From the IMG/VR virus record IMGVR_UViG_3300050025_000126, positions 43,277 through 107,276 of that record: DNA of 64,000 nucleotides. One strand, 5' to 3'. This document shows, piece by piece, positions 39,401 to 39,500 of the stretch. The position numbers and the translations under genes were made by a program. The DNA comes from a virus. Within the stretch, counting starts at the first letter, position 1. The number at the start of each line of letters is the position of its first letter. The notes below the pieces were generated by a model. The model saw nothing but the letters and a program-made list of their open reading frames with translations, did not search any database and was not told the DNA's origin.

Positions 39401-39500
39401 TGGTGCGCGCCGCACTGTTGGATTATGCTATCCTAATTGTTAAATGGTTGCAACCAATATTTACAATTATGGATCAGGATTGTCACCTGAATCTGCGCGT
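39401..39500 (-). ncRNA. Circularly permuted tRNA-like RNA B2 with encoded ACCA end
   Basis: CGCGC, TCAGG-TGACAAT-CCTGA, long closed TCC..TAATTGT/ACAATTA..GGA arm, TA, GCAT/GTGC D-like arm, GCGCG-CACCA. Confidence 0.6.

Follow-up and report, generated by a model that had tools for sequence, protein, structure and literature searches.

The element E2 (positions 39401-39500, minus strand) has the topology of a transfer RNA (tRNA) turned inside out, with an encoded CCA at its open end, and lies in an RNA operon of a virus. The window analysed was a stretch of 64,000 nucleotides (positions 43,277 to 107,276 of IMG/VR virus record IMGVR_UViG_3300050025_000126), and coordinates refer to it unless another locus is named. 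The first-pass annotation, made from the sequence alone, had drawn the layout and fold of E2, and the minus strand parsed exactly in that way. Read from 39500 to 39401, it ran A / CGCGC / AGAT / TCAGG-TGACAAT-CCTGA / a 43-nt AU-rich closed hairpin / TA / GCAT-AATCCAACA-GTGC / G / GCGCG / C-ACCA. The four-way junction was both the minimum free energy structure and the centroid when folded with RNAfold. E2 alone had a folding energy of -27.3 kcal/mol and a z score of -2.62, with 5 of 200 shuffled sequences folding equally well; with its flanks included, z was -3.05 and none of 200 shuffles was equally stable. The closing stem consisted of five G-C pairs; the AU-rich hairpin (arm 2) had 3 + 7 bp, a single bulged A and an internal loop, and was capped by a UGGU-UGCA-ACCA stem-loop. 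When the plus strand of 39401-39500 was folded, z was -0.87 and the junction was not formed; a plus-strand RNA was rejected on these grounds. The junction formed on the minus strand only, which makes the structure a feature, at the level of RNA, of the strand that carries the tRNAs.

In its helix and linker lengths E2 corresponded to a tRNA that is open in the anticodon loop and sealed at the acceptor end. The descriptor written for this layout used structure only and took the tRNA lengths in permuted order. It called for a closing stem of 5 bp and, after a variable linker of 3-6 nt, an arm of 5 bp with a loop of 7 nt; a closed hairpin came next without a linker, then a linker of 2 nt, an arm of 4 bp with a loop of 7-11 nt and finally a linker of 0-1 nt. 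On both strands of the 107-kb virus record (214 kb of strand) it matched E2 and the neighbouring element E1 (39234-39319) and nothing else, in agreement with the earlier claim that the two have the same permuted order. Among 100 dinucleotide shuffles the mean was 0.06 loci per genome, and two loci were never reached. Four matches with a 4-bp D stem, none of them with tRNA-like loops, were obtained in 1.16 Mb of other phage and metagenome loci. The descriptor is strict: it missed the known YrlA-like RNA of Bxz1 and gave nothing in the T4 region or Felix O1, so that where it gave no match such elements may still exist. E2 does have the topology of a permuted (inside-out) tRNA, and this is statistically unusual. 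E1 and E2 had also been described as unrelated in sequence, and no significant homology of E2 to E1, to the other structured RNAs named below (A3, B6 and B1) or to tRNAs was observed.

Under a permuted Sprinzl numbering, in which E2 was taken as a tRNA beginning at position 38 and finishing at 37, 14 of 20 conserved tRNA positions were kept. The features retained were U8-A14, A15-U48 (an allowed alternative of the Levitt pair), A21, G10-C25, C11-G24, U13.G22, G26 opposite A44, G53-C61, U54..A58, C32 and A37. All six misses fell at the elbow (G18, G19, U55, C56 and R57) or at U33. The rough odds of such retention were ~0.006 for the specific bases, multiplied by 0.06 for the purine/pyrimidine positions. 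Retention of 14 positions therefore supports descent from a tRNA, but not a tRNA-like elbow. ARAGORN and Rfam found tRNAs on either side of 39401-39500 and none within it, even at E values up to 10. When the elements were re-permuted in silico, ARAGORN called a tRNA in 0 of 60 constructs of E2 versus 18 of 18 of E1; together with the lost elbow residues, this means that a tRNA-like three-dimensional elbow is not demonstrated. Judging from these residues, we conclude that E2 is probably derived from a tRNA whose core was kept and whose elbow contact was rewritten. The first-pass description of E2 as an inverted tRNA mimic thus held for the permuted topology and the tRNA core and failed at the elbow, and the name "T-like" given to its first arm could not be upheld, since the loop UGACAAU has none of U55, C56 and R57; the D-like arm likewise has neither G18 nor G19.

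The tail of E2 is the 8-mer GCACCAAU. The minus strand of the record held seven copies of GCACCAAT, four of them inside long open reading frames (ORFs) and three at the 3' ends of RNAs, namely E2, B6 and A3. The probability of at least three of seven copies falling within the two tRNA clusters (1.4 kb) was ~8e-5, and an encoded CCA was present in none of the five ARAGORN tRNAs of the phage. Because the motif stands at three RNA 3' ends at this probability while none of the five tRNAs encodes CCA, the tail is a selected motif and no coincidence. The encoded CCA that had been claimed for the open end of E2 is present and belongs to this recurring motif. A3 resembled E2 at both ends: it had a 7-bp closing stem, a 5' CAA/ACG junction, a 3' CGCACCAAUUU and the same A.C mismatch. 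It directly follows tRNA-Gly(ACC) and is without a T or D arm. The upstream tRNA-like gene ended in N73-CAA flush against both E2 and A3; for E2 this gene is B1, whose 8-bp closing stem is followed by A-CAA. B1 also has three internal arms, and no Rfam family matched it. N73-CAA stood in place of the expected CCA after tRNA-Ile (38836-38839), tRNA-Gly (10640-10643) and B1 (39501-39504), all on the minus strand. The spacer from the CCA of E2 to the first base of tRNA-Phe was 5 bases (AUUUC); by eye, the spacer to the next tRNA-type 5' end was 5 bases for B6 and 9 for A3. The tail itself is ambiguous, being readable as an acceptor-type end (A1.C72, A73, CCA) or equally as a split anticodon loop. 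The acceptor-type reading suits B6, where the motif follows a plain hairpin, and the rnaD RNA of T4.

Our preferred reading, held tentatively and at slightly less than an even chance, is that E2 is a processed, stable, non-decoding tRNA look-alike that works with or against the tRNA damage-and-repair machinery of the operon. We favor it because of the strand-specific fold, the permuted skeleton, the kept core and the tail motif on three RNAs, and because of the spacing of the CCA before the next tRNA, a promoter upstream, two ligases downstream, the presence of E2 in other samples and the precedent of T4 rnaD. In such a molecule, the acceptor stem of a tRNA would be sealed by the long hairpin, leaving it open at the former anticodon stem with a single-stranded GCACCA tail. 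Host tRNA-processing enzymes would excise E2 from the operon transcript; an RNase P cut at the 5' end of tRNA-Phe would free its 3' side, and 3' trimming would proceed back to the CCA. The all-GC stem and the CCA tail may then give E2 its stability. Its role could be that of a decoy or competitor, directed at a factor that recognizes tRNA bodies bearing a free NCCA end, or that of a partner to the tRNA-binding ligase. Engagement of synthetases, EF-Tu, CCA enzyme or toxins, as proposed at first, is speculation; an alanine-type G3:U70 pair was not visible on the 5-bp stem of E2, and no phage CCA-adding enzyme (PF01743) was detected.

Several points weigh against this reading. The elbow residues are lost and re-permuted E2 was not accepted by ARAGORN. 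The descriptor and the residue numbering were chosen after the elements had been seen, the descriptor lengths being those of tRNA and not fitted. No homologue of E2 was recovered in any search, and there is therefore no covariation. The RNA cassette is dispensable at the ligase locus L082, described below, and the functional part of the account is what we infer rather than observe.

Table 1. Parts of E2 and features around it in the 64,000-nt window (tRNA positions follow the permuted numbering).
Feature	Coordinates	Strand	Basis or remarks
E2, whole permuted RNA, probably tRNA-derived, 100 nt	39401..39500	-	sequence, fold, descriptor match
A, position 38 or A1 of the A.C mismatch	39500	-	
Closing stem, 5' strand CGCGC, tRNA positions 39-43	39495..39499	-	fold and permuted numbering
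4-nt linker AGAU, variable-loop position	39491..39494	-	its U able to make the A15-U48 pair
Arm 1, T-arm position, 5-bp stem and 7-nt loop UGACAAU	39474..39490	-	G53-C61 and U54..A58 kept; U55, C56, R57 lost
Arm 2, acceptor position, 43-nt closed AU-rich hairpin	39431..39473	-	
UA linker, U8 and A9	39429..39430	-	
Arm 3, D-arm position, 4-bp stem and 9-nt loop AAUCCAACA	39412..39428	-	A14, A15, A21 kept; GG absent
G26, then closing stem, 3' strand GCGCG, positions 27-31	39406..39411	-	
Single-stranded tail CACCAAU	39399..39405	-	includes encoded ACCA, 39401-39404
B1, 150-nt structured RNA, first after the promoter, directly 5' of E2	39501..39650	-	z -3.42, 0/200 shuffles
Sigma-70-like promoter TTGACA-17-TAGTAT	39668..39696	-	faces into the RNA operon; 10/12 matches, consensus match only
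tRNA-Phe(GAA)	39322..39396	-	immediately 3' of E2; ARAGORN/Rfam
E1, sister permuted tRNA body	39234..39319	-	canonical T loop UUCAAUC, D loop AGUCGGUUA
B6 3' hairpin, then ACCA within the GCACCAAU motif	39023..39047	-	
RNA ligase, PF09414 and PHA02142 OB-fold domain	37843..38826	-	start 12 nt past the last tRNA of the operon
Rnl1-type RNA ligase (PF09511)	36684..37787	-	after the first ligase
A3, 63-nt RNA, other tRNA cluster	10578..10640	-	z -2.14

The searches for relatives of E2 covered several collections. When 50,697 phage records were searched with blastn, only canonical tRNAs were returned, and in single-protein scans of IMG/VR neither the ligase nor the small ORF upstream of the operon gave anything. 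Of the 175 loci from profile scans, none had DNA like the RNA operon or a descriptor match to an E2-like element. The covariance model built on E2 (R1) had no match in 819 kb, which included a subset of these loci, the rest of the phage and the G000, T4, Bxz1 and Felix O1 loci. Exact-pattern IMG/VR scans with the T-like arm of E2, the D arm of E1 and the 3' part of B1 gave chance matches in coding DNA, or none. Two papers (PMC13692257 and PMC12135203) mentioned neither CCA ends nor tRNA-like RNAs of phages. Near-identical DNA was present in metagenomes from peat and from wood decay. A second peat sample contained the whole stretch with one difference. A wood-decay contig carried E2 identical save for one base deleted in the D-like loop (39422), and the same contig ran 117 nt past 39505 without aligning to the window. 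In a variant of E1 from the wood-decay metagenome run X5 (39286-39303), two changes in the closed hairpin kept their pairing as G.U wobbles, and C56 of the T loop was replaced by U. These variants are consistent with the folds and are too thin for covariation.

E2 might instead be an evolutionary relic, a decaying leftover of a tRNA gene duplication or rearrangement that is perhaps transcribed and has no function of its own. An orphan without homologues, with its elbow residues and U33 lost and rejected by ARAGORN, is what such a leftover would look like; other degenerate tRNA-like pieces stand in the operon, such as the 24-bit match at 38954-39011, and the entire cassette is absent from the nearest ligase relative read (L082). 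Decay, however, should hit stems and core at random, whereas in E2 four helices, exact linkers and 14 of 20 positions survive and the misses are confined to the elbow and U33. The five G-C pairs of the closing stem, the 8-nt tail motif that E2 shares with two RNAs otherwise unrelated to it and the essentially identical copy of E2 in an independent wood-decay sample also argue against decay. We regard a relic as unlikely.

The closest known design is that of YrlA, a tRNA-like Y RNA of bacteria and mycobacteriophage that is bound by Ro60/Rsr (Rfam RF02553; Chen et al. 2014, PMC4201824). In bacteria it is encoded in an RNA-repair operon (PMC4201824, PMC7790460), and in M. smegmatis CCA is added at its acceptor-like stem following RNase P cleavage (PMC4201824). 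A GNCGAAN0-1G motif lying close to the YrlA 5' end was defined, and YrlA-like RNAs were reported in phages near a Ro60 gene, in the same work (PMC4201824). E2 and YrlA share the order of variable region, T arm, loop-closed hairpin in the acceptor position, 2 nt and D arm, and both are opened at the position of the anticodon stem. E2 could accordingly be a Y-RNA-like partner, with its closing stem as the handle for a Ro60-like or other RNA-binding protein encoded in the missing third of the genome or too divergent to be recognized. The record is only ~65% complete by estimate, and in Felix O1 an annotated RNA-binding protein, ORF42, which is Ro60-like, is encoded directly 5' of the tRNA array. 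The two RNAs differ, however, in that E2 has an encoded CCA on its open stem while the CCA of M. smegmatis YrlA is added at the acceptor-like stem, and the conserved T and D loop residues of YrlA are absent in E2 (loops UGACAAU and AAUCCAACA). The Rfam YrlA model had no match on E2; its best scores in the record were 9-12 bits (E 1.5-7.5) and lay elsewhere, compared with 20-32 bits in the control phage Bxz1 and a gathering score of 69. The GNCGAA motif was absent near the 5' end of E2 (39480-39520, minus strand, direct reading), and no handle sequence common to E1 and E2 was found. TROVE, DUF2828 and VWA_2 had no match in the 107-kb record, so no Ro60/Rsr (TROVE) gene lay within ~4 kb on the strand of E2, tblastn found no homologue of Felix O1 ORF42 there, and PHROGs showed nothing Ro-like on ten large ORFs. 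Membership of E2 in YrlA was rejected on the missing RF02553 match, the missing loops, GNCGAA motif and common handle, and the missing Ro60-type gene in 107 kb. A partnership of the Y-RNA kind is distinctly unlikely.

The split-loop reading of the tail makes E2 a pre-nicked anticodon stem-loop, in which the tail would provide the stretch from 32 to 37 in a Trp-like loop (C A CCA A), position 38 being the 5' A, and the Rnl1-type ligase would seal the ends into a closed circle or be kept busy by them. The ends then read C32 A33 C34 C35 A36 A37 / A38, the terminal A.C becomes the common 32.38 pair, and the stem has exactly the 5 bp of an anticodon stem. The tail of E1, CCUAUUU, also resembles an anticodon loop, its CUAU core being common to the UCUAUAA loops of adjacent tRNA-like genes, and the Rnl1-type ligase is encoded within the same operon. 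T4 Rnl1 reseals breaks in tRNA anticodon loops, and hydrolytic processing of E2 would leave a facing 5'-phosphate and 3'-OH, the substrate type of the Rnl1 class. However, position 33 is A where a near-universal U is expected, and for B6, in which a plain hairpin precedes this 8-nt motif, the acceptor-type reading is simpler. T4 rnaD has a like end, and the bulge in the acceptor helix and the rewritten elbow make a working tRNA unlikely. We consider a pre-nicked loop very unlikely, and it is highly improbable that E2 and A3 are both made as pre-nicked Trp-like anticodon stem-loops and sealed by the phage Rnl1-type ligase into closed, tRNA-shaped circular RNA.

Circularly permuted tRNA genes give rise to working tRNAs by way of a circular intermediate, and one of their known junction types is at 37/38, within the anticodon loop. 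Such genes, with the 3' half before the 5' half, were reportedly described by Soma and colleagues in 2007 in Cyanidioschyzon merolae, and occur in some other algae and archaea. E2 likewise has the 3' half first and would be split at 37/38. It differs from these genes in its bulged AU-rich acceptor helix, in A33 and in the lack of canonical T and D loops, as well as in host kingdom and processing machinery. Unlike the algal permuted genes, E2 almost certainly cannot yield a working tRNA. As a working permuted tRNA gene it was rejected on the bulged A of the acceptor helix, the rewritten elbow and the rejoined loop CACCAAA, which has no U33.

There is only a slim chance that E2 is cis-acting punctuation, a structured spacer that would use its helix-plus-CCA to direct RNase P, RNase E or exonucleases at B1 and tRNA-Phe and would do nothing in trans. 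In favor of this, E2 exactly fills the gap between B1 and tRNA-Phe, the N73-CAA of B1 abuts its first base and the CCA ends of E2, B6 and A3 lie at the short distances given above before the next tRNA-type 5' end. Against it, 100 nt with a kept tRNA core far exceed the needs of a spacer, and any processing of tRNA-Arg and E1 does without a CCA element of this sort.

Non-tRNA structured RNA genes on the same strand among tRNA genes are also found in T4, where they are species 1 and 2 (rnaC and rnaD); the T4 record gives neither a function. The 3' end of rnaD in the genome is GGCGCACCA, near the end GCGCGCACCA of E2. At L187 1554-1672 (minus strand), rnaD has GGCGCACCA followed by AAU, near the GCACCAAU motif of the peat phage. 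The permuted tRNA skeleton is absent in both T4 RNAs and the E2 covariance model matched neither, so that the likeness is confined to the GCACCA end of rnaD.

Phage tRNA arrays are usually read as aids to codon usage or as spares against defences that cut tRNA. In the operon of E2, non-decoding tRNA-shaped RNAs outnumber the working tRNAs, and two RNA ligase genes follow directly on the array. As E2 shows, the inside-out design of the Ro60-bound YrlA can occur with a rewritten elbow and a tRNA-type CCA tail on the open stem, in a setting where no Ro60-like gene was detected in 107 kb. Should E2-type RNAs turn out to be stable and to bind either the repair ligases or an enzyme of defence, they would form a class of viral tRNA mimics that is new, and the stable RNAs of phage tRNA clusters, which have long lacked an explanation, would become directly accessible; E2 is short and easily expressed. 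A circle made by sealing E2 would be to bacterial viruses what the circular intermediates of permuted tRNAs are to algae, and phage tRNA-repair ligases would have a new use.

Matches to tail sheath and baseplate genes identified the virus, whose record has a length of 107 kb, as a myovirus. All features of the RNA operon are on the minus strand, in the order promoter, B1, E2, tRNA-Phe, E1, tRNA-Arg(CCU), two degenerate tRNA-like pieces and tRNA-Ile(UAU), the last tRNA of the operon. For ~830 nt after the promoter there were only short ORFs (<=65 aa), none of them credible, and no terminator-like site was found on the minus strand of the RNA operon region; a coding function or a terminator for the E2 region was rejected for these reasons. 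A small ORF (39700-39969, minus strand; 58-89 aa) with a basic N-terminus stands just 5' of the operon promoter and had no homologue among 5.8 billion proteins. The tRNA-Ile(UAU) gene (38839-38927, minus strand) has a long variable arm and an anticodon loop UCUAUAA with C instead of U at position 33. The partial tRNA match of 24 bits next to it (38954-39011, minus strand) has the same anticodon loop.

The ligase at 37843-38826 has many homologues, with P0002 (82%) and P0003 (71%) among the nearest. It has an N-terminal OB-fold domain; some homologues are named tRNA-binding EMAP/Myf-like, and one has PF01588, which suggests that this ligase may bind tRNA-shaped RNA. The ligase neighbourhood also holds a HAD-like gene and an orphan ORF. 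In L082, the closest ligase locus read (80% identity), the HAD-like gene lies directly against the ligase and the RNA operon is absent (L082 3041-3508 compared with 38830-39970 of the window); this identifies the 1.05-kb cassette, made up of the small ORF, the promoter and eight RNAs, as an accessory insertion. Beyond the ligases, at 33287-35610 (minus strand), a nicotinamide phosphoribosyltransferase-like gene (PF04095, PF18127) stands beside a gene with a phosphoribosyltransferase domain, and the two look like a nicotinamide adenine dinucleotide (NAD)-salvage pair.

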